Assembly (NCBI GenBank): GCA_022561875.1
Contig: JADFQJ010000010.1
Span: 3,235 to 67,234, forward strand
Length of the DNA: 64,000 nt
DNA from: Bacteroidota bacterium
Lineage (GTDB): Bacteria > Bacteroidota > Bacteroidia > Bacteroidales > VadinHA17
Direction of reading: 5' to 3'
The translations under genes and the position numbers were made by a program. Below are positions 4,807-62,898 of the stretch, piece by piece (position 1 is the first letter of the stretch; the number at the start of each line of letters is the position of its first letter). Below the pieces are notes generated by a model. The model searched no databases, was not told where the DNA came from, and worked only from the letters and a program-made list of their open reading frames with translations.

Positions 4807-6192
4807 CTATTTCCTGAATTTCTTTACAAAATCTTCAACTTCCGGCACTCCTCCCTGGTAAACAAGGTAACCGTTGTATGGTTCCCGTTCGGTTATTTCA
4901 TCGTTGACAGGTGACAACATGATTTTTTTAACTTCAACCGGATCTTCAGTTTGACCCAGGGCCCAACCCAGTTTAATAAATGTTACTTCAGGAAGCATAT
5001 TTCCTGCCGGCACTACCCCTTTTGCCATCATATCGCGTCCGGTATCATAGACAAACATATGCACATAACCCCAGATGGTTTGCAGGGTCATATATATCGA
5101 AACACCTTTTTTCGCAGCCCTTTCAAGGGCGGGATAAATCTCTTTATTCACATGTCCCAGGCCTGTACCAACAATCACAACTCCCTTGTAGCCCATATCT
5201 ATCAGCGAATCAAGAATTTCCGCTTTCATATCCGGGTAATAATAAAGCATTGTAACCTTTTCGCTAAAGTAAGGAAGGATATTTACTTTCCTGTCTTTTC
5301 GCCGTGGATTATAGTTCTCCTTAATAAGTTTTATCTCATCCCTTTTTACTGTTGCAACAGGAATATCACCTATCGTTCGGAATGTGGAACGATATGAGCT
5401 GTGCATTTTCCTGACCCTGGTACCCCGGTGAAGGAAACCATATTCATCTGAAGTGGGCCCGAACATGCAGACTAAAGTTTCAGCGATATCGCCATGACCA
5501 GCTGCATACACAGCATGCATAAGGTTAAGGGCTGCATCTGAGGAAGGGCGGTCGGAAGAGCGTTGAGACCCTGTCAATATAATAGGTATGGGCTGATTCT
5601 GTATCATGAAAGATAGTGCTGCAGCGGTATGGTGAAGGGTATCGGTTCCGTGACTAATGATAATCCCGTCAATACCATTCCTGATCTCTTTTCCTATAGC
5701 TTTTGCCAGTGTAATGTATTGCGCAGGACCCATGTTTTCGCTAAAAATCGCAAAAAGTTTTTCGGTTGTAAGGTTACAGATATCAGCAAGTTCAGGTACT
5801 GCTCCATATAGCTCACCCGGCGAAAAGGCGGGAATAACGGCGCCTGTTCTATAGTCGAGACGGGAAGCAATTGTCCCGCCGGTGCCAAACAGCTTCACAT
5901 TGGGCAGATGGTCGGAATAAGGAAATTCTTTTTCAGGTATCTTGTAGTTGGCCTTTTGATAACCGGTCTCTTTCATGTTATTGATCGTGTCAATATCAAT
6001 TCCTATATTGTACCCGGTAGGGATCTTAAGCACAATATGCCTGTCATCATCATTTTCGGAGCGTGGTAAAACAGTTCCTGTAAATTTACCGCGAGTGGTA
6101 TCGATAAGCGTCTGCCCCCATACTCTGACATTGAACTTTCTCAGCACCCCGAGTGCAGCGCCTTTATATCCCTGGAAAATATCTTCAGCCAT
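4807..6192 (-). CDS. gatD: Glu-tRNA(Gln) amidotransferase subunit D (archaeal GatDE type; asparaginase-like glutaminase)
   Basis: 461 aa. A GatD-specific N-terminal domain of about 98 aa (HIVLKIPTGYNIGIDID) precedes an asparaginase fold. The catalytic motifs are FGTGGTIASRLDYRTGAV and IISHGTDTLHHTAAALSF. The gene lies directly downstream of gatE. Confidence 0.85.
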   Translation of the reverse strand: MAEDIFQGYKGAALGVLRKFNVRVWGQTLIDTTRGKFTGTVLPRSENDDDRHIVLKIPTGYNIGIDIDTINNMKETGYQKANYKIPEKEFPYSDHLPNVKLFGTGGTIASRLDYRTGAVIPAFSPGELYGAVPELADICNLTTEKLFAIFSENMGPAQYITLAKAIGKEIRNGIDGIIISHGTDTLHHTAAALSFMIQNQPIPIILTGSQRSSDRPSSDAALNLMHAVYAAGHGDIAETLVCMFGPTSDEYGFLHRGTRVRKMHSSYRSTFRTIGDIPVATVKRDEIKLIKENYNPRRKDRKVNILPYFSEKVTMLYYYPDMKAEILDSLIDMGYKGVVIVGTGLGHVNKEIYPALERAAKKGVSIYMTLQTIWGYVHMFVYDTGRDMMAKGVVPAGNMLPEVTFIKLGWALGQTEDPVEVKKIMLSPVNDEITEREPYNGYLVYQGGVPEVEDFVKKFRK

Positions 6193-6272
6193 AGTTTGTT
6201 GTTTTATGTTTCTTTTCCTTACTCATTTCTCCATTCTCCATTCTACATTTTCTCTAATTGTTACGAGTTTCG

Positions 6273-6358
6273 AGCTTGCCACGTGAAATGCGACGTTTAC
6301 CCTTTGAAATTTGAGGTACGAAAATATTTCACCAGGGAAGGAGCATATTTCACTGTGG
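6273..6358. repeat. Dispersed nested-hairpin repeat, copy A (86 bp); copy B is inverted at 55081-55200
   Basis: The 54 bp at 6305-6358 are identical to the reverse complement of 55081-55134. 6273-6295 matches the reverse complement of 55178-55200 at 22 of 23 positions. The element holds four GTGAAAT/ATTTCAC boxes. CCACGTGAAAT (6279-6289) can pair with ATTTCACTGTGG (6347-6358). Confidence 0.9.
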
Positions 6359-6365
6359 TTACGAG

Positions 6366-8405
6366 TTACGGGTTATGTACAATTTTTTCTATCTCTTTCT
6401 TTAGGTTTTTCATTTCAACATTCCCGGCTGCTTGTCTGTATACCTGGCCCATTAACCAATTTATTGTGTTTTTATCATTACCGGAGATTCGTATTTCTTT
6501 GAATTTTTCATAAAGGAAATCAACAGGTGCAAGCAGTTCATTCATTGACTTTTTTCTGAAATTGATGCTGATCAGCACTGAACTGAATTCCATATCCGGG
6601 TGTTCATAAATAACAGGAAGCATTCTTTTGGCGATGGAAGGCTGAAGTTTTTCGTTGTGAATAAATTTGAACAAACCGTATATTTTATTGTAGCTGAAAT
6701 TTTTATGTTGTGGCATCTTTCCTTCAATATTCTTAAATGTATGCCCCCAAAAGACCCCCAGAAATTTAGGCTCAAAGCCGAATTTCCCACTGATCTGCTC
6801 GATCATCGGCGCAAGATTCTTGCTTAACAGGTAATGGTAAGTATCTTCCGGGATGCCCCACGATTTCATTTGCCTGAACCTTTCGGCAACTGTTTGCGGG
6901 ATGTTTTTCCTGAGGGTTTCAATATAATCTGTTTTAAGAGGAATAGGGGCTGAATCAGTATCAGGGTACATGCGGTTAGCACCAGGGAGCACTCTTTTAA
7001 ATATAGTTGTGCCGTCCGGGAATGATTTTCTTGTTTCATTGGGTACCCCGTCAAATGCCATCTGACATCGTTCCTCAATCGTTTCAAGAGCAGTGGGGAT
7101 ATCCTCTTTTGGACCCCAGAACACAATCTGGGCATCATCTTCTTTCGGCTCAAGAATTCCGCAGATCTTTTCAAGATCTTTTTTATTAATATGATCTTCA
7201 AGCATTTCGGTGTGGATCATATTAGGCTTTTCAATACAGGCGATCACCTTCAGCCTGGTGGTTATTTCGTCTGCAAATATCTTCCCCGGCTGTGTAAAAT
7301 GAGAAAGAATACCTTTAAAATAAGGAAGGTTGACAGCGTAAATTTCGAAATTTTCGTTGTATGCTTTTTGTATATGTTCATTCTCCAGTCCCAGGTCACG
7401 AGGATCGATCTTACTTGATCTTATACTCCGGTTTTTTCCGTTTGCAACTCTCTCTTTGAGAAGTTTCCGGATATGCAGAAGGGCAAATTGCCGGAATGCC
7501 TCATTATGAGAAAGCTCAGGTATCCACTTATTGTGTGAAACGCCTTTTATTTCAACCCTGCTTCCTCCACGGCAGCTAACATTGACATCTTCACGTCCCG
7601 CTCCTATTCCTATCCGTACTTTGCCGGTGCTGCGGTTTAAAAACCTGATATATTCCGCGGCTTCCCTTAGCTCATCAGGAGTTTCCATATCAGGATATGT
7701 GACGGTTTCGATCAAAGGCATTCCCAGCCTGTCTGTCTTAAAAATGCGGGTATGCCTGATATCCGAAACCTCCCGGCAGGAATCCTCCTCGATACTTAGC
7801 TGGATCAGTCTGACTTTCTTATTTTTCAGTTGAATTTCACCTTCAACCCCCAGTATTGCTGTTCGCTGGAATCCGGTTGGGATACTTCCGTCGAGATATT
7901 GTTTTCGTGTGATATGAACCTCTCCAACAATATTCAGGCCTGACAGCAGCGATATCTCAAGAGCAATCTCAAGCGCTTCCTTATTAATCAGGAACGGAGG
8001 AGTGTCATCTATATCATAAGTACAGGCTGTCTGATTCTTGATCCGGTATATGATCTGCTTCCGGGTTTTATATTCCATCAGGGCTGTACCATCATATTCT
8101 CCAAGTTCGCTGAGGGTGGGCCGCATATGGCGGATGATCTCTGCATTATATTCATCATGATCATTGTATATGCCTGCAGGACAGTGGCAAAACAATTTCT
8201 TTTTTGTTTTTAGCTGTTGATGAACTTCCAAACCCGACTTAAAACCTATTCTCTTATAATCGGCCGGAGTTGCTTTTTTACGAGTCACATAGCCAATCTC
8301 CGACCGGGTTTTTTCGTAGTTCTTTTTAGGACTGAATCTTTTTTTCACCTGTGGAACAGTTGATAAATATATGAAAAAAATACGAATTAGAGACCTGATA
8401 ATCAA
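6366..8405 (-). CDS. gatE: Glu-tRNA(Gln) amidotransferase subunit E (archaeal GatDE type)
   Basis: 679-aa ORF with GatB/E core motifs: DYKRIGFKSGLEVHQQL..KLFCHC, DGSIPTGFQRT, LSIEEDSCRE, DRLGMPLIETVT, GAGREDVNVS and RVEIKGV. An inserted domain and a long C-terminal tail make it far longer than GatB (about 480 aa). The first 40 or so codons look non-native, and an in-frame GTG at 8288 is an alternative start. Confidence 0.85.
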   Translation of the reverse strand: MIIRSLIRIFFIYLSTVPQVKKRFSPKKNYEKTRSEIGYVTRKKATPADYKRIGFKSGLEVHQQLKTKKKLFCHCPAGIYNDHDEYNAEIIRHMRPTLSELGEYDGTALMEYKTRKQIIYRIKNQTACTYDIDDTPPFLINKEALEIALEISLLSGLNIVGEVHITRKQYLDGSIPTGFQRTAILGVEGEIQLKNKKVRLIQLSIEEDSCREVSDIRHTRIFKTDRLGMPLIETVTYPDMETPDELREAAEYIRFLNRSTGKVRIGIGAGREDVNVSCRGGSRVEIKGVSHNKWIPELSHNEAFRQFALLHIRKLLKERVANGKNRSIRSSKIDPRDLGLENEHIQKAYNENFEIYAVNLPYFKGILSHFTQPGKIFADEITTRLKVIACIEKPNMIHTEMLEDHINKKDLEKICGILEPKEDDAQIVFWGPKEDIPTALETIEERCQMAFDGVPNETRKSFPDGTTIFKRVLPGANRMYPDTDSAPIPLKTDYIETLRKNIPQTVAERFRQMKSWGIPEDTYHYLLSKNLAPMIEQISGKFGFEPKFLGVFWGHTFKNIEGKMPQHKNFSYNKIYGLFKFIHNEKLQPSIAKRMLPVIYEHPDMEFSSVLISINFRKKSMNELLAPVDFLYEKFKEIRISGNDKNTINWLMGQVYRQAAGNVEMKNLKKEIEKIVHNP

Positions 8406-8441: not shown

Positions 8442-8449
8442 CAAAATTA
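8442..8449 (-). promoter_or_regulatory. Bacteroidota -7 promoter box (TAATTTTG) for gatE
   Basis: The reverse complement of CAAAATTA matches the TAnnTTTG consensus. It lies 37 nt upstream of ATG 8405. Confidence 0.4.
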
Positions 8450-8776
8450 AACTTGTTTTACGGGATAACAAAGAAAGCTTGTGAAAAACATATCGGGAGA
8501 TGTTAAAACGGTGATTCAGTGTTGCGGGTTACGAGTTACGTGTTTCGGGTTAAGAATTTGGAAGTATCTAAAGACGCAACTTTAACCGGATTTGCTTCAC
8601 TTCGTAATGATCCGGAATTTCTTATAACTTATAACTTTTAAATTATTAAAAATGGTGATGAGGTGATGAGGTAATGGAGAAGAAGTAAGAAGTTAAAAGG
8701 TGAGACGGATAATGGATAAATGTTGTTTGGGTCTGCGTCTGGATTAAGACTGGGATAACTGGCTGTTGACGATTCG

Positions 8777-9088
8777 TTATAAGTCAATTTGTAATCCCGT
8801 TTTTTTAATTTGATTTACTATTGAGCTGTTTATTTTAAAATCGTCTTTATTAAAAACATGAGGTTCGATTAATGTTTCTTCACCCGTTCGTATTACCATT
8901 AACTGTACTTCAACATCAAATGTTTTTGAGTTGTCAGATAAGACAATAGCAATATCAATATCGCTATTTTCTTGATAGTTACCCTTAGCATAAGAACCAA
9001 ATAACCAGGCTTCTGAAAAGTTGATTTTTTGATCCTTAATCTTCATTAAGTATGATTTGCTTATTTTTATAGCTGTTTCTTTATCCAT
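8777..9088 (-). CDS. Minimal nucleotidyltransferase (MNT-type, antitoxin-like partner of HEPN)
   Basis: 103 aa. FGSYAKGNYQENSDIDIAIV matches the GS-X(9-11)-DXD pol-beta-type NTase motif. The gene overlaps the upstream HEPN gene by 22 nt. Confidence 0.8.
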   Translation of the reverse strand: MDKETAIKISKSYLMKIKDQKINFSEAWLFGSYAKGNYQENSDIDIAIVLSDNSKTFDVEVQLMVIRTGEETLIEPHVFNKDDFKINSSIVNQIKKTGLQIDL

Positions 9089-9465
9089 TTCCTTATTTCT
9101 TTAATTTTTTCCAGCCATTCTGTAGTGAATTTTTCCGTACATAGTTTGTAAAAACTCTGTTTATAGTCGTCATACCTGACATTTATATTGAATCTGGTAA
9201 TTGAATCTAAGATAACTTTCTTTTCTTTATCCGGTTCAATTCCTGCCTGTTCAATGATTCTCCTTAAGTCGTGTATTAAAGGCGGATATTCACCTTTTTC
9301 AAATACGTATTTGGCTTTGAGTATTTTTCCGATTACCAGGTGTCCTATAAACAATGACCAATGGTAGTTTTTTGTATTATAAAGGTCAATCATTGTTTTA
9401 TAATCTTTATCAGAACTGTCAATCCAGTATTTTATTAGTTTTTCCCTGTTAATATTTTTAGTCAT
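9067..9465 (-). CDS. HEPN domain protein
   Basis: 132 aa with an all-helical pattern. The LIHDLRRI and NVRYDDY helices resemble PF05168-type HEPN proteins. It is translationally coupled to the NTase gene. Confidence 0.7.
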   Translation of the reverse strand: MTKNINREKLIKYWIDSSDKDYKTMIDLYNTKNYHWSLFIGHLVIGKILKAKYVFEKGEYPPLIHDLRRIIEQAGIEPDKEKKVILDSITRFNINVRYDDYKQSFYKLCTEKFTTEWLEKIKEIRKWIKKQL

Positions 9466-10871: not shown

Positions 10872-11244
10872 TTTGATAATTTGGTAAGCAAAGGTACTAA
10901 AAAGTCAGCAGTCAACAGTCAACAGTCGACAGTCAGCATTTACTCTTGCAATGAGATATTTATCATGTTAGTAAGAAATTTCCTAAAGACGAACTTTACT
11001 TTTTGACCACTCAGATAAGAGAATACTCAAGATATGTTTGTTCAAATCCTTATTCACATGATTCAAAATCCTGAAAAGTATAAATAGCACAGTCTTTAGA
11101 TTGCCGACTGAAGATTGCCGACTTAAAGATGCAAAGTATAATGAGATTAGCTATTTTTGGCATTTAAAACTTAAGACACTGAATAGTTACCTTATCATTA
11201 GTGATTATGTATATTTATTCTTTTTTTATTGTAAAATATTTTCG

Positions 11245-13694: not shown

Positions 13695-13846
13695 TGTGAT
13701 GTCTTTTAATATTAATAAACCGGTTTTGTAAAATGATACTGTAAATTTAACTGGAATATTTCAATATTACTATGTTATACAATATTTCACGGTTGCTCAT
13801 AATATAATCGATGGAGGATAAGGGACTGAAAAGCGGATAAAATTTA

Positions 13847-13854
13847 TATTTTTG
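13847..13854 (+). promoter_or_regulatory. Candidate -7 box (TATTTTTG) upstream of valS
   Basis: Fits TAnnTTTG and is the only such box in the 295-bp spacer. It lies 136 nt upstream of ATG 13990, so the implied leader is long. Confidence 0.3.
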
Positions 13855-13989
13855 CATCAAGAAAGGGAAGAAGGGAATGGAGGGATTAAAGGGAATAGAT
13901 GGAATAGAGAAAAAAAATAGTTTATCCAGCACCCAGCACCCAGTAACCAGTAGCATTTAGCATATAACTTTATAACTTTTTACTTATTT

Positions 13990-17513: not shown

Positions 17514-18365
17514 TCAAATTTTACTAAAAGCTTTAAGGCTCATATCCAAACTATGTATCTGGTGGGTTAAGGCACCAACTGAAATAAAATCCACTCCACA
17601 TTCGGCGTAATCCAGGACAGTTTCGAGTGTAATTCCCCCGGACGATTCCGTTTCAAATTTCCCATTGATCAGTTCAACAGCTTTACGGGTATCATTTAAG
17701 GTAAAGTTATCAAGCATTATCCTGTTTATTTCACCGGTTTTAAGTATTTCCCTGATCTCATCCAGGTTCCGGGCTTCAATTTCAATACTGAGATCTTTCC
17801 CGACACTTTTCAGGTATGCGTGTGTTGAATTAATGGCTTCCCTGATCCCTCCGGCAAAATCGATATGGTTATCTTTAAGCATGATCATATCGTAGAGGCC
17901 CATTCTGTGGTTCTCACCGCCTCCGGTTTTTACAGCAGCTTTTTCAAAAACCCGGAGGCCGGGAGTTGTCTTCCGTGTGTCAAGAATTCTGGTTTTTAAT
18001 CCTTCCAGTTTCCTTACATATTTATTTGTTGTAGTGGCTATCCCGCTCATCCGTTGCATGAAGTTTAAAACAAGTCTCTCGGATTGAAGTATAGAAAGGA
18101 CCTTTCCGGAAACAACAAACGCAACGTCTCCGTTTTTTACTTTTGCACCATCTTTCAATAACAGTTCCAGTTCAAGCTCCGGGTCGATCTGGTGAAATAC
18201 CATTTGTGCCACGTTAATCCCGGCAACAATCCCATGGTCTTTTATTAACAGACGTGCTTGTCCATTTACATTATCAGGGATACATGAAAGGGAGGTGTGG
18301 TCGCCATCGCCTGCATCTTCGGTAATAGCTAATTTTATTAGTTCACTCAGGTTTCTTGAGTTCAT
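17514..18365 (-). CDS. nadC: Nicotinate-nucleotide pyrophosphorylase (carboxylating)
   Basis: 283 aa. Motifs are ILDTRKTTPGLR, GGGENHR and IMLKDNH. Confidence 0.92.
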   Translation of the reverse strand: MNSRNLSELIKLAITEDAGDGDHTSLSCIPDNVNGQARLLIKDHGIVAGINVAQMVFHQIDPELELELLLKDGAKVKNGDVAFVVSGKVLSILQSERLVLNFMQRMSGIATTTNKYVRKLEGLKTRILDTRKTTPGLRVFEKAAVKTGGGENHRMGLYDMIMLKDNHIDFAGGIREAINSTHAYLKSVGKDLSIEIEARNLDEIREILKTGEINRIMLDNFTLNDTRKAVELINGKFETESSGGITLETVLDYAECGVDFISVGALTHQIHSLDMSLKAFSKI

Positions 18366-18762
18366 GTTCCTTTTCTATTCTGAGTTGGTGGATCAACAGG
18401 TTTCCTTCTTTGGTTTTTAAAAGGAAATAAACCCGGAAGGTTACATTATCTGTCGAAAGTTCAGCAATGGCATACTTAGCATCTTTTTTCCCTCCATGGT
18501 GAAGAATGATAAACTTATTCGGGAGATAGTTTTTAAAAAAATCCTTCAATATTCTTTCAGCCTGGGTTTTACTATAAAGATCTTCATGCTGAAGGACTAC
18601 AAGTTCGATATTCGAATTGAAGTATTTTGCCAATTCATGCGAATTGCCTGCCTTGAAGGCAAGCGAAATCCCTTCGGGGATACCCTGAGGGCTCGAATGG
18701 GTTAAAATAACAGGACCGGCAAGTAAAATTAACAATATTAATATTTTGCGAAATCCGATCAT
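18343..18762 (-). CDS. DUF4783 domain protein
   Basis: The internal ATG at 18762 gives the signal peptide MIGFRKILILLILLAGPVIL. The body (FKAGNSHELAKYF...YSKTQAERILKDFF...YAIAELST) matches the DUF4783 pattern, which is commonly found beside nadC in Bacteroidota. It overlaps nadC by 23 nt. Confidence 0.7.
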   Translation of the reverse strand: MIGFRKILILLILLAGPVILTHSSPQGIPEGISLAFKAGNSHELAKYFNSNIELVVLQHEDLYSKTQAERILKDFFKNYLPNKFIILHHGGKKDAKYAIAELSTDNVTFRVYFLLKTKEGNLLIHQLRIEKEHELKKPE

Positions 18763-18925
18763 TTTGATTAATCTTAAAATGTATTTGATCTGATGCAAAA
18801 AATGCACCATTCAGTTTTCTGCAAGTTAGTAAAATTCGGACAAAGTTATAAATGTTATTCGATCAATGAAAATAATGTTGCTGCAAGCAGGCAATACCAG
18901 ACAGGATTTCGTTGAGCAAAAAGGA

Positions 18926-18998
18926 TTAATTAACTCAAGTTGCTAGTTGCTCGTTACTAGTTACTGGTTAATATACTATAATTCAATTGTTTATAAAA
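18926..18998. repeat. Dispersed 66/73-bp repeat, copy 1 (five heptads)
   Basis: Aligns with 49877-49942 in the same orientation, with 3 mismatches and one 7-bp indel (TAGTTAC). The core is a tandem array: AGTTGCT AGTTGCT CGTTACT AGTTACT GGTTAAT. Confidence 0.9.
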
Positions 18999-19135: not shown

Positions 19136-22100
19136 ATGAATAATTTCAATATAATGTTACAAAAATACAGATCAGCTGCTCTATATCTTCTAATTGGAGT
19201 AATGCTTTTTGCCGGAGGACAATGGACGGAAAACTATCTTATCCGGGAAGGATATAATAATTTCAGGATCAAAAGGTTTGAAAAGGTCCTTAATAAGAAA
19301 GAAAGATATCTGGATAAAGTTCTTGACCAGGTTGCTAATGATAAGAATATGGGTGTGGAGATATTTAATAAGGAAGAAATGGTCAGGTTAAACCGAAAAA
19401 ACATAGCTATACTGGTATATCACGATGACAAATTAGTTTTCTGGTCAGACAATTCTTTCAGAATCCCGAAAAAAAGCGAAGAACTGGATCAACCGGTGGT
19501 TTTTCTTCAAAATGGCTGGTATTTTGTAAAATCTGTTAAAGCAGCCAACAAAACAGTGACTGGTTTGATATTGTTAAAGAATAAGTATAATTATGAAAAC
19601 CGGTTTTTAAGAAATAAATTCCCGGATGAATATCATTTGCCACTATGTTATATGATATCGAAAACCGATCCGGGTGGCGGATGGCCTGTACATGCTTTAA
19701 GTGGCAATACACTTATTTACTTGACCAAAGATAACGGAGATACTTGTTACGGACAGGCGATATACTATATCTCTTTAATTTATTTTTTGGCAATATTGGC
19801 CATATTACTGTTTTTAAGAAAGTTTCAGCAAAATTTTCAAGGTATTAAGGCAAAAAAATGGGGTCTTTTTATTCTGTTGTTGTTATTAGTAGGGGGATAT
19901 TTGCTGTTTGTAAAGGTACAATTCAAATCAATCTGTTTCTCTCTTGATCTGTTTTCCCCATATTACTATTCTCTTTCAGAATACATTCCTTCTCTTGGTG
20001 ACTTTTTCCTCCTGTCTCTTTTCATTTTTTTCTTTTCTTACAATTTTTCTAAAGATTTCCAGCTTTCACTAAAATTAACAAATAAAAAATTCACCACAAG
20101 GTTAATTACCTGCTGGGGATGGTTACTATTTGTATCTGTTGTTTTTGTTATCATATATTTACTTTTCAGGAATCTTATCATAAACTCAAGTGTCATCCTG
20201 GATCTGAACAGGGTGCAGGATTTAACTTTTAATAGTTTCATTGGATTTATTTCAATAGGATTACTGGTAATATCTTTTGTTTTACTTGTACAGAAAGTAA
20301 TTTATTCTGTTAAAGACATACTCTCTACCTATTGGTTAATAACCGGAGTATTGGTCTCTTTGGTTGTTTTTCTTGTTATTGCTTTTTTACCGGAATACAG
20401 GTTTGATTTAATGCCGGCCGGATTTTACCTGATTATAGGTTTGACAGGAATCCTCGCTTTGCACCTCGGATTTACACGTTTGAATTACCTGGTGATTGTG
20501 ATCTTTATTATGGCGGTTTTTTCAACTGTTTTATTAATTAGAACGAATCACAATGAAGAAATGGAAAACCGGAAAGTGTTTGCAGTAGATTTAGCAACTG
20601 AGAGAGATCTGGTAGCTGAATTATTCTTCGAAGAATTGAACATGGAAATACAAGATGATCAGCAAATTATTGAAATAATGACAAAGGGAGCATTTTTTCC
20701 CGAGGATGAGGATAAAATTTATATCCTCTTGAAGGATAAATATTTTAAGGGTTTCTGGGAAAAATATGATCTTTCTACTGTCATTTGCAGTGAAAATTCC
20801 GGCTTGATAGTCAATGATCAACTTAAAGATAATTGTTTCGAATTTTTCAATGAGTTGCTAAAAAATGATAGTTATCCTATAAGAGAAACAAATTTTATGT
20901 ATCTGGAATCAACTACCGGCAGAATACGATATTTTGGGACATTCTATTTTACCAGCGAACAAGACAGTAAGCAAAATGGACTGTTTGTTGAGTTAAATTC
21001 TAAGATCCGTTATGCCCAGCAAGGTTATCCGGAACTATTGTTAGATGAAAGTTCAGGTAGAGATATTAAAATAAAAAACTATTCTTCTGCTAAATATTAT
21101 AAGGGCAAGTTAATTAGTCAGAGTGGAGAATTTCAATATAGTCTGGCCTTTTCTGAGGATCCGGAGGGATATGAATTCGAATTCACATTCTTTGGTGGAT
21201 ATGAACATCTGGTTTATCGTATTGATCCACAGAATATTATAATTATTGGAAAGCCAAAGATAACGTTTGTCGATTATCTTACCACCTTTTCATACCTGTT
21301 TGTTTTCTTTTTTATTTTGCTCAACCTTACCAGGATGATAATACATTTACCTGGCATAACCGGTTCGCTGCATTTTGATTTTAAGAACAAGATACAATGG
21401 TCCTTGCTCCTGATCCTGATTATCTCACTATTGTCAATAGGTGGTGGTGCAATTTATTTAAGTATACGACAATATGAAAATGAACATTTTGACAACCTTA
21501 GTGAGAAAATGCAGTCAGTATATGTTGAACTGGAGCACAAATTGAGCTTTGAAAATTCCCTGGCTTCAGGGTGGAGTTCTGATCAGTATCCTGCTTTGAA
21601 CGATCTGTTAAGGAAATTTTCGAATGTATTTTATTCCGATATTAATTTATATGACCCTGAAGGAGATCTGCTGGCTACTTCGCGCCCGGAAATATTTAAT
21701 GAAGGTCTTATTGGTGAGAAAATGAATATGGAAGCCTATAACCGGTTAAAGGTAAACAAAATGGCTGAATTTGTTCATAACGAAGCAATTGGTGATCTTC
21801 GTTTTATGTCAGGTTATATACCTTTTACAAACTATGAGAATAAATTACTGGCTTATTTAAACCTGCCCTATTTTTCACGTGAAAACGTTCATACCGGTGA
21901 AATTTCAAACCTGGTGGTTGGGATTGTTAATTTTTCAGTGGTTCTTATCCTGCTTATAATGGGACTTGCAGTTTTTATCTCAACCAGGATAACCAACCCT
22001 CTTAGGATGATACAAAAGGAGTTCAGTAAAATTGAGCTGGGGAAGGAAACAAAACCTATTCATTACGAAAGTAATGATGAGATTGGCAGTCTTGTTAGAG

Positions 22101-22879
22101 AGTATAACCGTATGGTTAAAGAGCTGGCAAGAAGTGTTGAAATGTTGGCGAAATCCGAAAGAGAATCTGCATGGAGAGAAATGGCAAAACAAATTGCTCA
22201 TGAGATAAAAAATCCTTTGACACCTATGAAGTTAAGTATTCAGCAACTTCAACGTGCATGGGATGATAAAGCTCCCCGCTGGGATGAATACTTGAAAAAG
22301 TTTTCGGATAACCTGATTGAACAAATTGAACATTTATCATCCATTGCTTCGGAATTTTCCAATTTTGCAGAAATACCTAAAACAAAAAGGGAAGCGGTAA
22401 ATGTGGTAACTAAGATCATAAAATCAGTTGAATTATTTTCAAATGAGGAAAACATTGATTTTAAGATAGATTTAAACAGTAAGGATAAGGTGTTTATTTA
22501 TTTTGATAAGGAAAAAATGGTTCAGGTGTTCTCAAATCTGATCAACAATGCTATCCAGTCCATTCCAGATGAAAGAAGAGGTATGATCAAAATAAACCTT
22601 GATATTATTGATAAAAAAGTAATTGTTAAGATTGCTGATAACGGTTCCGGAATTCCTAAAAATATTGGAGATAAGCTTTTTGAACCCAATTTCACAACGA
22701 AAACCGGTGGAATGGGCTTGGGATTGGCGATCGTAAAAAACATTATGGAAGATGCAGGCGGCAGGGTCTGGTATGAAACGGAAGTTGGGAAAGGCAGTAC
22801 TTTCATAATTGAGATGCCTTTATTTGTACCTGGAGAAAATGCACCTGCTCCGGACCGGACTAAAAATATAAAAGCCTGA
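19136..22879 (+). CDS. Sensor histidine kinase with a very large polytopic N-terminal region
   Basis: 1247 aa. The H-box is AHEIKNPLTPMKLSIQQLQ, the N-box is NLINNAIQS, and the G-boxes are DNGSGIP and GGMGLGLAIVKNIME. Two clusters of hydrophobic helices lie upstream (about aa 210-470 and 700-930). Confidence 0.9.
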   Translation: MNNFNIMLQKYRSAALYLLIGVMLFAGGQWTENYLIREGYNNFRIKRFEKVLNKKERYLDKVLDQVANDKNMGVEIFNKEEMVRLNRKNIAILVYHDDKLVFWSDNSFRIPKKSEELDQPVVFLQNGWYFVKSVKAANKTVTGLILLKNKYNYENRFLRNKFPDEYHLPLCYMISKTDPGGGWPVHALSGNTLIYLTKDNGDTCYGQAIYYISLIYFLAILAILLFLRKFQQNFQGIKAKKWGLFILLLLLVGGYLLFVKVQFKSICFSLDLFSPYYYSLSEYIPSLGDFFLLSLFIFFFSYNFSKDFQLSLKLTNKKFTTRLITCWGWLLFVSVVFVIIYLLFRNLIINSSVILDLNRVQDLTFNSFIGFISIGLLVISFVLLVQKVIYSVKDILSTYWLITGVLVSLVVFLVIAFLPEYRFDLMPAGFYLIIGLTGILALHLGFTRLNYLVIVIFIMAVFSTVLLIRTNHNEEMENRKVFAVDLATERDLVAELFFEELNMEIQDDQQIIEIMTKGAFFPEDEDKIYILLKDKYFKGFWEKYDLSTVICSENSGLIVNDQLKDNCFEFFNELLKNDSYPIRETNFMYLESTTGRIRYFGTFYFTSEQDSKQNGLFVELNSKIRYAQQGYPELLLDESSGRDIKIKNYSSAKYYKGKLISQSGEFQYSLAFSEDPEGYEFEFTFFGGYEHLVYRIDPQNIIIIGKPKITFVDYLTTFSYLFVFFFILLNLTRMIIHLPGITGSLHFDFKNKIQWSLLLILIISLLSIGGGAIYLSIRQYENEHFDNLSEKMQSVYVELEHKLSFENSLASGWSSDQYPALNDLLRKFSNVFYSDINLYDPEGDLLATSRPEIFNEGLIGEKMNMEAYNRLKVNKMAEFVHNEAIGDLRFMSGYIPFTNYENKLLAYLNLPYFSRENVHTGEISNLVVGIVNFSVVLILLIMGLAVFISTRITNPLRMIQKEFSKIELGKETKPIHYESNDEIGSLVREYNRMVKELARSVEMLAKSERESAWREMAKQIAHEIKNPLTPMKLSIQQLQRAWDDKAPRWDEYLKKFSDNLIEQIEHLSSIASEFSNFAEIPKTKREAVNVVTKIIKSVELFSNEENIDFKIDLNSKDKVFIYFDKEKMVQVFSNLINNAIQSIPDERRGMIKINLDIIDKKVIVKIADNGSGIPKNIGDKLFEPNFTTKTGGMGLGLAIVKNIMEDAGGRVWYETEVGKGSTFIIEMPLFVPGENAPAPDRTKNIKA

Positions 22880-23101
22880 TACCTGATACTTATACCTTGA
22901 TACTAAAAAAGAACATATAAAACTCATTGTTCTTAATGAGAACGCTGCCGGGAATGACTGTTCTGCTGAACACGACCTTTTATATTAACCTTTTTCACGG
23001 TTTTATCGTATATAGATTGTTATACCATTATGTTATAGTTATTATAGTTAAGGTATATTCAAAACTTTTTTTATAAGAAAAGGAAATAAGTAAGATTTAT
23101 T

Positions 23102-49876: not shown

Positions 49877-49942
49877 TTAATTAACTCAAGTCGCTGGTTG
49901 CTCGTTACTGGTTAATATATTATAATTCAATTGTTTATAAAA
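49877..49942. repeat. Dispersed 66/73-bp repeat, copy 2 (four heptads)
   Basis: See 18926-18998. This copy lies between convergent gene ends, whereas copy 1 lies between divergent gene starts. Confidence 0.9.
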
Positions 49943-54656: not shown

Positions 54657-54969
54657 CCATCTTTTCGAAACTGCTGCAAATGTACCTTCCTGAAGAACAC
54701 TGCCTATCCCATTATGAAGGAAGCAGCTGAGTTTTACCTTAACTTTCTTGTTGAGGATCCAAAAAGCGACTTGTTGGTTTCCGGTCCTTCCATTTCACCT
54801 GAGAATTCATTTATCACTCCAAACGGCGAAAGGGCAAGTTTGTGTATGGGACCGTCAATGGATCACCAGATAATACAGGATCATCTCCTCTCAACAGCTA
54901 AAGCATCGGAACTGCTTAATGCCGGTGTGACATTCAGACATGAAATGCTGATTCAATCGCTCAGGTTAA
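54657..54969 (+). pseudogene. Remnant of a glycoside hydrolase family 95 (alpha-L-fucosidase-type) gene, about 100 of about 800 codons
   Basis: The translation FLKNTAYPIMKEAAEFYLNFLVEDP...LVSGPSISPENSF...GPSMDHQII...ASELL matches the conserved GH95 central region (AYP.MK.AAEF..., PS.SPEN). There is an in-frame stop at 54654, no N-terminal or C-terminal domains, and homology is lost after about 54969. Confidence 0.7.
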
Positions 54970-55080
54970 TTTGCATGAGAAACAGATTTTCTGAAAAAAT
55001 AGCGAATATTATTTTGCGAATTTTGTATTTTAGATGTTTGTTAATAAAATACATAATTGACAGGTGATTGATACTTTTAA

Positions 55081-55200
55081 CCACAGTGAAATATGCTCCT
55101 TCCCTGGTGAAATATTTTCGTACCTCAAATTTCACCCTGATACAGTCATTCTTCCTTACAGGGCAGGCAGGGACAAGCGTCGCATTTCACGTGGCAGGCT
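55081..55200. repeat. Dispersed nested-hairpin repeat, copy B (120 bp, inverted relative to copy A)
   Basis: See 6273-6358. This copy carries a 43-bp central segment (55135-55177) where copy A has 9 bp. The inner stem GGTGAAAT/ATTTCACC is 8 bp here. Confidence 0.9.
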
Positions 55201-55234
55201 TATAACTTTTTACTTTTAAACTATACTGATACAT

Positions 55235-56569: not shown

Positions 56570-56640
56570 TTCTGAAGAGATTATTATGGTTTATCCGGAA
56601 AGTGAATAGGTGTCAGATGGAATAATGGAAAAATGGAATA

Positions 56641-56868
56641 GTGGAAGAAAGGAAAAAGATAAATAGGGATTTTAAACAATTGAGTGTTTGGCAGGATGCT
56701 ATTTCATTATATGTTTTATCTTCAAAGATGTTGTCTGGTTTCTCATTTGAATTTTTAGAAATAAGTCTTGGATCATGCGGGGATTTTCATTCATCATATT
56801 ACAGTTTCTTTAAAGCTGATCAAATTTCAAAAGATGAATTTGAGTCGTTGGATAAGTTACATTATTAA
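56641..56868 (+). pseudogene. Truncated four-helix-bundle protein (23S rRNA intervening-sequence protein family, TIGR02436-like)
   Basis: FKQLSVWQDAISLYVLSSKM matches the family N-terminus (F..L.VWQ.A..L). The sequence then jumps straight to FEFLEISLGSCGDF (family EF..FL.IA.GS), so about 40 central codons and the last 20 or so are missing. The apparent N-terminus MEERKK is read from an 8-mer array. Confidence 0.5.
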
Positions 56869-57052
56869 ATATTAAGAATATGAGCGAATTATTACATAAA
56901 GAATTATCAAACAAGATTATAAAACATTTACAAATGATAGGAAAAAAATAGAACACGGATAACACAGATGCAACAGATGACCACTAATCAGTGAGAATTA
57001 GTTCAATCCGTGTCATTCGTGTTCCATTAACCGGTAGTAAAAACTAATTATT

Positions 57053-61669: not shown

Positions 61670-61891
61670 TAAATGATAAGATAATCTTTTTCTTTTCGAA
61701 ATCCCGGTTTACTTTCCTGATTCAATCTCTGAAAGAACTTTTAGCTTGAAACTTTCACTGTACTTCTTAATTGTCCTGTTGTCTTTTAACATTTTTAATA
61801 AGTATAGTGTAGACATTTTTCAGGACGGGTCAACATCTTACTCCTTACTAACTACTTCTTACTATTTACTTTTCTTTTGTGGTGTCATAAT

Positions 61892-62524
61892 TTATTTTAC
61901 CGGTCCCCAGTCTATTAATTTATCATTCATAAAGATCAGGTAGGTTGATGGGTAAAACCATTCTTCCTTAACCTGTCCGGGGTTTATAAAACGTTTAATT
62001 TTATCGGGACGACCCCAACTGTCTTCAACCATATGAGTGGTCATGTTACGCCATATCTTATGATCAAATATTTTCTGAGCTGTTTCCCAACCATATGTGT
62101 AACGTAAATAATCTAATTTGCTGGAAAATATGGTGGCAGTGTCTTGTTGATTCAAAACCTCAGGTGGTTTTTTAAAAAAACTCTGATCAGGGTTGATTTT
62201 AGAATTTTTCACAAACCCCTGGATAACATCGGTTTTAATGTAGTAATATTCATCCATAACATCCACAATAAAAATCCTTGTATCTGCAGGAATAATTGTC
62301 ATTACCGAGCTTAAGTTTCCCATATCGGAATATAGCCTGCATGCTGAAGATGTAACTGCGTTACTTTTAAAAGAAGTATCCGTAACTTCGGTCTGGTTAT
62401 TGAGTTCAGTTGAATTCTGTTCAAGCTGATCGAGTTTTCTCTCGAGTTCATCAAATTGTTGCGCGCTTAACGTGACAATAAATAAAAACCCGGGTATGAT
62501 GGTAAAAAGAATATTTCGGGACAT
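61892..62524 (-). CDS. Hypothetical secreted protein
   Basis: 210 aa. An N-terminal signal/anchor (ILFTIIPGFLFIVTLSA) is followed by a short coiled coil. I recognise no motif. Confidence 0.6.
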   Translation of the reverse strand: MSRNILFTIIPGFLFIVTLSAQQFDELERKLDQLEQNSTELNNQTEVTDTSFKSNAVTSSACRLYSDMGNLSSVMTIIPADTRIFIVDVMDEYYYIKTDVIQGFVKNSKINPDQSFFKKPPEVLNQQDTATIFSSKLDYLRYTYGWETAQKIFDHKIWRNMTTHMVEDSWGRPDKIKRFINPGQVKEEWFYPSTYLIFMNDKLIDWGPVK

Positions 62525-62898
62525 ATTTGTATTTTATTAAATTAATGCCATTCTTCAATGAATCAAAAACTATACCACACGAAATTAAATCATGATTGAA
62601 GAGCAGGTATTGCTTTGATTTTTTCAATAGTCCCCGGCAATATGTATCGGAATTTACTCACTTCGTTCATGAGATCGGGGCTGTCTCAAAAGAGGGTAAT
62701 TGTTACGATTCTTCTCTTTGCGGTTCTTTGTGTCTCCTTTGTGTTCTTTTGTGTAACAGTCATTTATACTTCGCATTTTTAAACCGGCAATCTGAAGACT
62801 GAGCTATTGTGGTCTGCCGACTATTAACTAATTATTTATGAAACCTGAAAATTAAAGTTTTTTTTGTATTTTTACTTAAAACAGTTAAGATTGTTACC

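Follow-up and report, generated by a model that had tools for sequence, protein, structure and literature searches.

Degenerate heptamer arrays in the spacers of an uncultured marine-sediment Bacteroidales bacterium: probable products of strand slippage that house a tiny hairpin element

Tandem heptamers between bacterial genes have been on record since 1990 and were noted across whole genomes in 2007, and neither their origin nor their function has been settled. Here we analyze the short, degenerate tandem arrays that occupy the spacers of a 64-kb stretch of contig JADFQJ010000010.1 (the whole of which is hereafter referred to as the window), whose host is an uncultured marine-sediment Bacteroidales bacterium, and which an initial annotation had described as a recurring lexicon of 7-9-nucleotide (nt) words. 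Heptamers are the most abundant class of long simple sequence repeats (SSRs) in many prokaryotes, and slippage has been proposed (Mrazek, 2007, as cited in PMC4679880 and PMC4692102). Three tandem heptanucleotides are reported in Calothrix PCC 7601, according to an account in PMC4692102; spacers of Gramella, Aequorivita and Elizabethkingia are assemblages of several heptamer words (MacGregor, 2015; PMC4679880); and Xanthomonas GGGAATC repeats lie between the same genes in relatives, with varying length and sequence (Rehm et al., 2015; PMC4692102). Comparable heptamer assemblages are also on record for Nostoc (PMC4692102). The repeat class is thus already known from cyanobacteria, Xanthomonas, Beggiatoaceae and some Bacteroidetes, and is here described in an uncultured marine Bacteroidales lineage. 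The window arrays share the testable features of short tandemly repeated repetitive (STRR) sequences and long SSRs of the heptamer class, namely unit length, over-representation, intergenic location and unit-number variation, and we regard them as probably slippage-driven, largely neutral heptamer microsatellites of this kind.

Every array that had been listed was recovered where the initial annotation placed it, outside called genes (Table 1), with contact to a stop codon only for 6358-6378 (13 nt) and 22875-22909 (5 nt). At a score of at least 30, Tandem Repeats Finder (TRF) reported 8621-8646 (period 7, 3.7 copies) and 8654-8676 (period 8, 2.9 copies), as well as 6227-6249, 10903-10935, 13864-13909, 13926-13943, 18938-18970, 22875-22903, 56617-56654, 61836-61871 and 62726-62754; this low threshold captured most of the claimed arrays, with periods of 7, 8, 9, 10 or 14. 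The array at 8521-8555 is too decayed for TRF and was recovered by a permissive periodicity detector, and periodicity is only faint at 8680-8722, 56952-56987 and 62784-62825. With a strict detector (match +1, mismatch -2, score at least 12), six arrays were found in 6.5 kb of spacer and two in 57.5 kb of coding DNA (0.9 versus 0.03 per kb), and 200 dinucleotide-preserving shuffles of the spacers yielded 0.05 arrays on average and at most one per shuffle. The permissive setting gave 15 arrays versus 2.3 in shuffles, with a period of 7, 8, 9 or 14 in 14 of the 15. Shuffled spacers had been put forward as a comparison that could overturn the claimed array density, and real spacers stand far above them. 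These shuffle and coding counts indicate that the window arrays are far beyond chance and specific to non-coding DNA. Period 7, followed by period 8, is commonest in the window (four and two arrays, respectively), in close relatives (10 and 5) and in 75 other Bacteroidales-type loci (34 and 22), and arrays are 10-30 times denser outside long open reading frames (ORFs). Among 80 species-level loci, array density is over-dispersed (chi-square 172, 79 degrees of freedom), which points to array density as a property of the lineage.

Comparison material was obtained by using the GatE-like protein as query against species-representative genomes, which returned 144 relatives, mostly uncultured Bacteroidales with some contigs labelled Marinimicrobia and Aminicenantes. 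The nearest of these (L001-L005; 88-89% protein identity) are metagenome-assembled genomes (MAGs) from marine sediments or cold seeps. For the organism itself, the analysis covers the 64-kb window and short contigs, including near-identical contigs (99.0-99.97%) in ENA and Logan assemblies (L081-L090). Unit-number variation in orthologous spacers, a comparison suggested at the outset, was seen at both strain and species level. Strain L083, which is 99.0% identical to the window over 5.4 kb, differs from it by 37 substitutions and two indel events: one AGTCAGC unit was lost from the array at 10903, and ~8 nt (three adjacent gaps) were lost in the purine array at 13897-13908. The only indels in this strain are therefore one 7-nt unit and one 8-nt unit, both within arrays, which supports slippage among the origins that the initial annotation had considered. 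Further strain contigs around 61892-62524 and 18343-18810 are too short, ending at or near repeats, and added no indel data. Several Logan contigs of the same organism (L083, L087, L088 and L097) end in or beside arrays or element A, a ~70-nt dispersed repeat, with three ending at 8526 and L097 at ~18993; because these independent contigs end inside or beside them, the repeats break short-read assemblies.

Comparison with L001-L005, whose genes run in the same order as those of the window from valS to the porin gene, reveals arrays at persistent positions. Promoter and leader cores are conserved across the relatives, e.g., ATATGTTTTTCACCAGCTTTCTTTGTTATC...TAATTTTGGGG upstream of gatE, while the array upstream of this gatE core is made of CGTAACN in the window, of CTCTTCG in L001, L003 and L005, and of CCTCATCA in L002 and L004. 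At ~130 nt farther out from gatE, the window too has retained a CCTCATCA array, and its array at 8654-8722 has orthologues in the CCTCATCA arrays that L002 and L004 carry upstream of gatE. Among genomes, the length of the gatE-gatD spacer lies between 82 and 331 nt, with deletions bounded by direct repeats. Upstream of ftsX, the window array has the unit GTTGACT; its counterparts are GCCGACT/GCCAACT in L001 and GTGGACT/GCCGACT in L002, so that the register NNNGACT is kept in L001 and L002 and the other three bases differ between genomes, being homogenised within each. The valS-proximal AAAGTTAT array has two units in the window and five in L001.

These comparisons demonstrate that the arrays are restricted to non-coding DNA, gain and lose whole units between strains, and persist at their spacer positions across long divergence while unit number and word drift. 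We infer from this pattern, and not from direct observation, that strand slippage in replication or repair makes and remodels the arrays. Loops of 7-8 nt would escape mismatch repair, and a mutated unit could be amplified to yield a 'new word', such that arrays would be born, expand, contract and decay in unconstrained DNA with homogenisation inside each array. They would survive wherever sequence is unconstrained, including upstream of promoters, in 5' leaders and past stop codons, and would be largely neutral filler rather than sequence-specific regulatory sites. Slippage fits because the indels comprise whole units, copies are degenerate, homogenisation occurs within genomes, any non-coding position can be occupied, and arrays are absent from many relatives that have the same genes. 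As reasons for the preference for 7-8-nt units, a polymerase footprint and poor repair of loops longer than 3 nt have been suggested in the literature (PMC4679880; PMC4692102; PMC4060949).

The proposal of a lexicon recurring across loci held only in part, in that GTTACGA-type words recur in the arrays of other genomes and general sharing of consensus words between spacers does not exceed chance. Within the window, 7 of 112 pairs of consensus units from arrays in different spacers agreed to within one mismatch when all rotations and both strands were allowed, with 8.8-11.5 pairs expected from letter-shuffled or randomly sampled words, i.e., no sharing above chance, and a shared lexicon in the window was rejected as a general statement. 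The spacers do share an excess of 11-14-mers (71 common 14-mers versus 1.1 in shuffles), which is almost entirely due to element A, a second dispersed element (element B) and the AT-rich word ATAACTTTTTACT, found at 13972 (-13984) and 55202 and common to the arrays abutting the starts of valS and a major facilitator superfamily (MFS) transporter gene. The purine-rich 'family' does not share a word, its members resembling one another in composition only. We also compared 11 window words with 148 arrays of other genomes, using permuted-word controls. The ten words other than GTTACGA did not recur in these 148 arrays, and the total over all 11 words was 28 versus 19.2 (p ~0.1). A common core motif sought in the arrays of 80 loci was not found, with ACTG weakly enriched (z = 2.1).

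Several observations weigh against slippage as a complete and neutral account. The strain-level events observed are only two, a small number. GTTACGA-type words came within one mismatch of 12 other-genome arrays versus 1.9 for permuted words (0/300), with such arrays found outside the window in L045, L057, L065, L099, L108 and L111, and CG-containing tetramers are the most enriched in array units (z ~3.8; borderline after multiple testing); pure slippage predicts no preferred words. The preference for 7-8 nt is left without a mechanism. Moreover, arrays have been kept beside conserved promoter cores since a split at ~89% protein identity, with GACT invariant and in register upstream of ftsX, which could reflect constraint and not self-renewal. 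Some regulatory or structural role is possible in view of the persistent positions, the GACT register and the GTTACGA recurrence.

In addition to the arrays themselves, the window contains two dispersed elements that are associated with them. The two copies of element A are 86% identical, each holds a heptamer array, and neither matches anything in the fetched relatives. Element B is an 84-nt element, CCACAGTGAAATATGCTCCTTCCCTGGTGAAATATTTTCGTGCCTCAAATTTCACAGGGCAAGCGTCGCATTTCACGTGGCAAG, built of nested hairpins on GTGAAAT/ATTTCAC, with hairpin ends and folding as a hairpin. It divides one array into the two halves that had been listed separately at 6261-6281 and 6358-6378. Its two window copies, matched as 6277-6361 against the reverse complement of 55078-55196, have 57 identical nt (55078-55134). 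The element is absent at the orthologous L001 site and present in L003 (at about 549-665), so its presence varies between relatives, and a metagenome scan yielded 18 more loci with it (L099-L116). Some copies have extra 33-nt hairpin inserts after TTTCAC, and some are in tandem, separated by 22-nt heptamer arrays. In each of 20 non-identical copies, the flank on one side continues in phase into the flank on the other, giving a single array without duplication, for example CCCGTAA CTCGTAA / CTCGAAA CTCGTAA in the window and CTGAAAA CCGAGAA CTGAAAA / CCGAGAA CTGAAAA in L116. Junction continuity is 13.1 versus 9.9 with mismatched left and right flanks (0/5000 permutations), arrays lie on both sides of 45% of copies versus ~4% expected, and 19 of the 20 copies have a left flank that ends in NNAC or NATC.

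Because the flanks join in this way, element B entered a pre-existing array and did not create one. The suggestion that arrays are landing pads was accordingly retained for a tiny non-coding hairpin element and dropped for gene cassettes. Element B looks like a REPIN (doublet of repetitive extragenic palindromic, REP, sequences) or a MITE (a miniature transposable element with inverted repeats), and we consider it possible, at somewhat less than even likelihood, that a new family of tiny mobile hairpins has the arrays as its specific target. Insertion without duplication beside NNAC resembles the single-strand HUH transposition of IS200/IS605 or REP-associated tyrosine transposase (RAYT) type, a likeness that is an analogy only, since no transposase was identified.

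The position of the arrays relative to genes and putative promoters is diverse. The -7 promoter consensus of Bacteroidetes is TAnnTTTG, and the promoters in the window are putative, guided by this consensus. For gatE, an array (8521-8555) lies ~70 nt upstream of the putative -7 box TAATTTTG (box 5' end at 8449, - strand), those of ftsX and namZ extend across the -33 zone immediately upstream of the putative -7 box, one lies between two divergent putative promoters at 18.9 kb, and those at 22875, 56617 and 61837 follow stop codons. The valS array is probably in the 5' leader because it is downstream of the putative valS promoter. As every unit carries the same sequence, loss of one unit leaves the promoter-proximal sequence of ftsX and namZ unchanged. 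Mapping the arrays against start and stop codons, a check that had been advised, revealed no fixed placement in the window: arrays occur upstream of, across and downstream of TAnnTTTG boxes, and in divergent, convergent and tandem spacers alike. They were also said to cluster beside small accessory genes or remnants of these, including a HEPN/nucleotidyltransferase (NTase) pair and gatDE, which is not what we find. Arrays flank valS, gatD/gatE, ftsX, namZ, a histidine kinase gene, PEPCK and the MFS transporter gene; L001-L003 lack the HEPN/NTase pair and yet keep arrays in that spacer; and gatDE is no accessory remnant, being syntenic and 88-92% identical in relatives. The HEPN/NTase pair at 8777-9465 (-) is a presence/absence insertion in the ftsX-gatE spacer, absent in L001, L002 and L003. 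Conserved sequence downstream of the NTase gene and a 2.3-kb spacer suggest that L004 has the pair as well, with the ftsX stop codon on one side of it and the CCTCATCA array on the other.

Table 1. Positions of the arrays and of dispersed elements A and B in the window, with long arrays in other genomes in the last row (TRF, Tandem Repeats Finder; MFS, major facilitator superfamily).
Feature	Coordinates	Strand	Details
GTTGCGG GTTACGA GTTACGT GTTTCGG GTTAAGA degenerate heptamer array	8521..8555		Read from the sequence; period 7, score 14
CTTATAA x3.7 heptamer array, decaying toward end	8621..8648		TRF period 7, 84% matches
GGTGATGA x2.9 octamer array at 8654-8676, then weakly periodic purine-rich tail	8654..8722		TRF period 8, 93% matches
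TTCTCCA x3.3 heptamer array, 31 nt upstream of gatD start	6224..6258		Purine-rich on gatD sense strand
Single GTTACGA/GTTTCGA array, halves ~6259-6274 and 6359-6378, interrupted in phase by element B	6259..6378		
Element B copy 1, 84-nt nested-hairpin element CCACAGTGAAAT...ATTTCACGTGGCAAG	6275..6358	-	Without target duplication
AGTCAAC x4.7 heptamer array, abutting putative ftsX -7 box	10903..10937		TRF
GATTGCCGACTGAA x2.5 14-mer array, just upstream of putative namZ -7 box (11152)	11098..11136		
AGGGAATAG x5.2 purine-rich array, period 9, downstream of putative valS -7 box (13847)	13864..13910		TRF
CCAGCAC CCAGCAC CCAGTAA CCAGTAG heptamer array	13926..13953		TRF; missing from orthologous spacer of L001
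ATAACTTT array abutting valS ATG	13961..13989		2 units in window
Element A copy 1, holding AGTTGCT/GTTACTG array (18938-18972, 5 units), between divergent promoters	18926..18998	+	
CCTGATA array beginning at histidine kinase gene stop codon	22875..22909		TRF
Element A copy 2, 4 heptamer units (49889-49916), convergent spacer	49877..49942	+	
Element B copy 2, 118 nt, nested 33-nt hairpin insert, inside ACTTTTA/CTTATAA array	55081..55198	+	
CTTATAA/ACTTTTT array, 8 nt upstream of MFS transporter gene start	55199..55226		
ATGGAATA x4.8 octamer array, 47 nt past MFS transporter gene stop codon	56617..56656		TRF
AACACGGAT x3 weak 9-mer array	56952..56987		
CTTACTA array (period 7/14), convergent spacer	61837..61878		TRF
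CTTTGTGTTC x2.8 10-mer array	62709..62756		TRF
Longer and purer arrays elsewhere	L045 9634-9926, 1637-1786; L050 1-68, 3686-3777; L054 21363-21459		Some contig ends inside arrays

The initial annotation had stated that the arrays are neither CRISPRs (clustered regularly interspaced short palindromic repeats), nor hairpin REPs, nor coding, and all three statements stand. The window units are 7-10 nt and contiguous, which rules out a CRISPR array with its 24-48-nt repeats and unique spacers of similar length. The region 8515-8725 folds no better than its shuffles (z = -0.54) and contains only two weak inverted repeats, neither significant, which argues against palindromes of the REP or bacterial interspersed mosaic element (BIME) type. 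No ORF longer than 49 aa occurs within the spacer, and the ORFs called through arrays are without a Pfam match; the gene caller runs a 69-aa ORF through the arrays at 13747-13956. No Rfam family matches the arrays or element B. Classic phase-variation repeats were also rejected, the arrays being short, degenerate, outside ORFs and beside housekeeping genes, as were iterons or DnaA-box clusters, given that the arrays occupy more than 10 separate spacers and that, over most of the window, cumulative GC skew climbs monotonically. The ORFs scanned against Pfam (~20 of 43) included no replication gene.

Several other explanations of the arrays were weighed against slippage. They may be sites for sequence-specific regulators, whether proteins that bind promoter DNA or proteins that bind RNA in 5' leaders, a reading for which several arrays 0-80 nt from start codons or abutting putative -7/-33 elements (ftsX, namZ, valS, gatD, MFS transporter), positions kept in relatives with GACT in register upstream of ftsX, and the recurrence of GTTACGA-type words across genomes all speak, and which has a precedent in the translational regulation proposed for the TAACTGA repeats of Beggiatoaceae (PMC4679880). 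We nevertheless consider it unlikely, given that the word can be wholly different between relatives at one orthologous position, that the neighbours are unrelated housekeeping genes, and that arrays also occur past stop codons and in convergent spacers. Furthermore, consensus words are not common to spacers above chance, arrays are missing from many Bacteroidales that have these genes, and the window is without TAACTGA repeats. The many related genomes without arrays, a spacer length that varies four-fold at one locus and inconsistent orientation similarly make it quite unlikely that the arrays have a physical role independent of the word, such as promoter spacing or insulation, unstructured 5' leaders (in a phylum without Shine-Dalgarno-led initiation) or DNA bending. 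Such a role would agree with the fact that each of the six genomes compared has an array of one word or another immediately upstream of its gatE promoter core, with the unstructured region 8515-8725 and the inability of direct repeats of non-self-complementary units to form hairpins, and with three of the four purine-rich arrays being purine-rich on the sense strand of the downstream gene.

Alternatively, the arrays could be by-products of mobile elements, either target-site duplications that have piled up or scars left where small transposable elements or gene cassettes excised. In favour of this, most of the 20 copies of element B are embedded in arrays, element A holds an array inside a dispersed repeat, and an array adjoins the HEPN/NTase pair, itself a presence/absence insertion; however, element B lacks a target duplication and its flanks form a continuous in-phase array, most window arrays have no nearby element, the changes between strains are clean indels of single units in which no element takes part, and bacterial DDE transposons rarely excise leaving both copies of the target duplication, so that we regard this origin as very unlikely. 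Least probable of all, in our estimation, are arrays built or maintained by dedicated machinery that is mobile between genomes, e.g., an HUH-type or polymerase-like enzyme linked to tiny hairpin elements. If true, this would explain the 7-8-nt preference, the patchy distribution (Bacteroidales, cyanobacteria and Beggiatoaceae), the recurrence of particular words across genomes (GTTACGA-type words and possibly CAACAGT, as in cyanobacteria) and the in-phase residence of element B.

At its start the window holds the 3' portion of a bacterial 23S rRNA gene and a 5S rRNA gene, and it encodes proteins typical of Bacteroidota (a Porin_10 porin, NamZ and an FtsX/MacB permease, by Pfam). GatDE is usually viewed as an archaeal Glu-tRNA(Gln) amidotransferase. 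The GatD- and GatE-like genes at 4807-6192 (-) and 6366-8348 (-) are located in a bacterial genome and are syntenic and widespread (144 loci), and contigs with such loci are labelled Marinimicrobia, Aminicenantes and Lentisphaeria in addition to Bacteroidales. Downstream of tRNA-Gly and tRNA-Leu, a 117-aa ORF at 54714-55067 (+) aligns with the GH95 catalytic-domain model (408 positions) over positions 196-273 only and is probably a gene remnant. Other Bacteroidales MAGs have longer and purer arrays, with up to ~290 nt of consecutive different heptamer words. In L021, labelled Rikenellaceae, 19747-19814 holds an internal (TAAACCC)n, which on the other strand reads as the plant-type telomere repeat TTTAGGG; the tract may be one more heptamer array, or the assembly may be chimeric.

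The interest of these arrays lies mainly in their in-phase association with element B and in the comparative series that the lineage offers. This series is workable, and could help settle the origin of such repeats, because it includes near-identical strains that differ by single units, relatives at ~89% identity in which arrays persist beside promoter cores while words turn over, and sister lineages without any arrays. As the preferred home of a tiny hairpin mobile element, the arrays link two kinds of spacer 'junk'. They also have practical consequences, in that they break assemblies and draw false small ORFs from gene callers.

Like the STRRs of the cyanobacteria Calothrix, Nostoc and Anabaena, the window arrays are intergenic tandem 7-nt units, with several degenerate words per spacer at many loci. 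The 1990 description by Mazel and colleagues reportedly gives STRR3 as CAACAGT, a rotation of the window word AGTCAAC, and STRR1 is said there to be CCCCAGT, which resembles the ACCCAGT/CCAGCAC words. Unlike cyanobacterial STRRs, the window arrays belong to another phylum, are short (3-6 units) and more decayed, and commonly include octamers, and they are without the G-rich, quadruplex-prone words of the Nostoc GGGGAYT type. In common with long SSRs of 5-11-nt units (Mrazek et al., 2007; Huang & Mrazek, 2014, PMC4060949), heptamers are commonest, and the repeats are intergenic, rare in coding DNA and patchy in phylogeny; surveys of long SSRs count near-perfect repeats, whereas most window arrays are degenerate and would fall below such thresholds, and those surveys did not cover uncultured marine-sediment Bacteroidales.

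Closer to the present lineage, the repeats described by MacGregor (2015; PMC4679880) from Beggiatoaceae, cyanobacteria and five Bacteroidetes share with the window arrays multi-word spacers, relatives with shorter repeat-free spacers between the same neighbours, and contig breaks inside repeats. The window arrays differ from them in having no consistent forward placement just upstream of start codons and many words instead of one dominant word, and the TAACTGA system was rejected on finding no (TAACTGA)2 match in the window at up to two mismatches. The Xanthomonas repeats likewise occupy the same spacer with differing length and sequence between relatives, and no link to gene function was found for them; they consist of a single G-rich, quadruplex-capable word, whereas the window words are diverse and mostly AT-rich. 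Element B, for its part, is comparable to REPIN/REP sequences and to the small dispersed repeats of cyanobacteria as a tiny, non-coding, nested hairpin that is located in spacers and varies in presence, and it differs from REPIN/REP in inserting in phase within heptamer arrays without target duplication and without an associated transposase having been identified. This in-phase residence of a hairpin element in heptamer arrays is a new addition to a known class of bacterial repeats.

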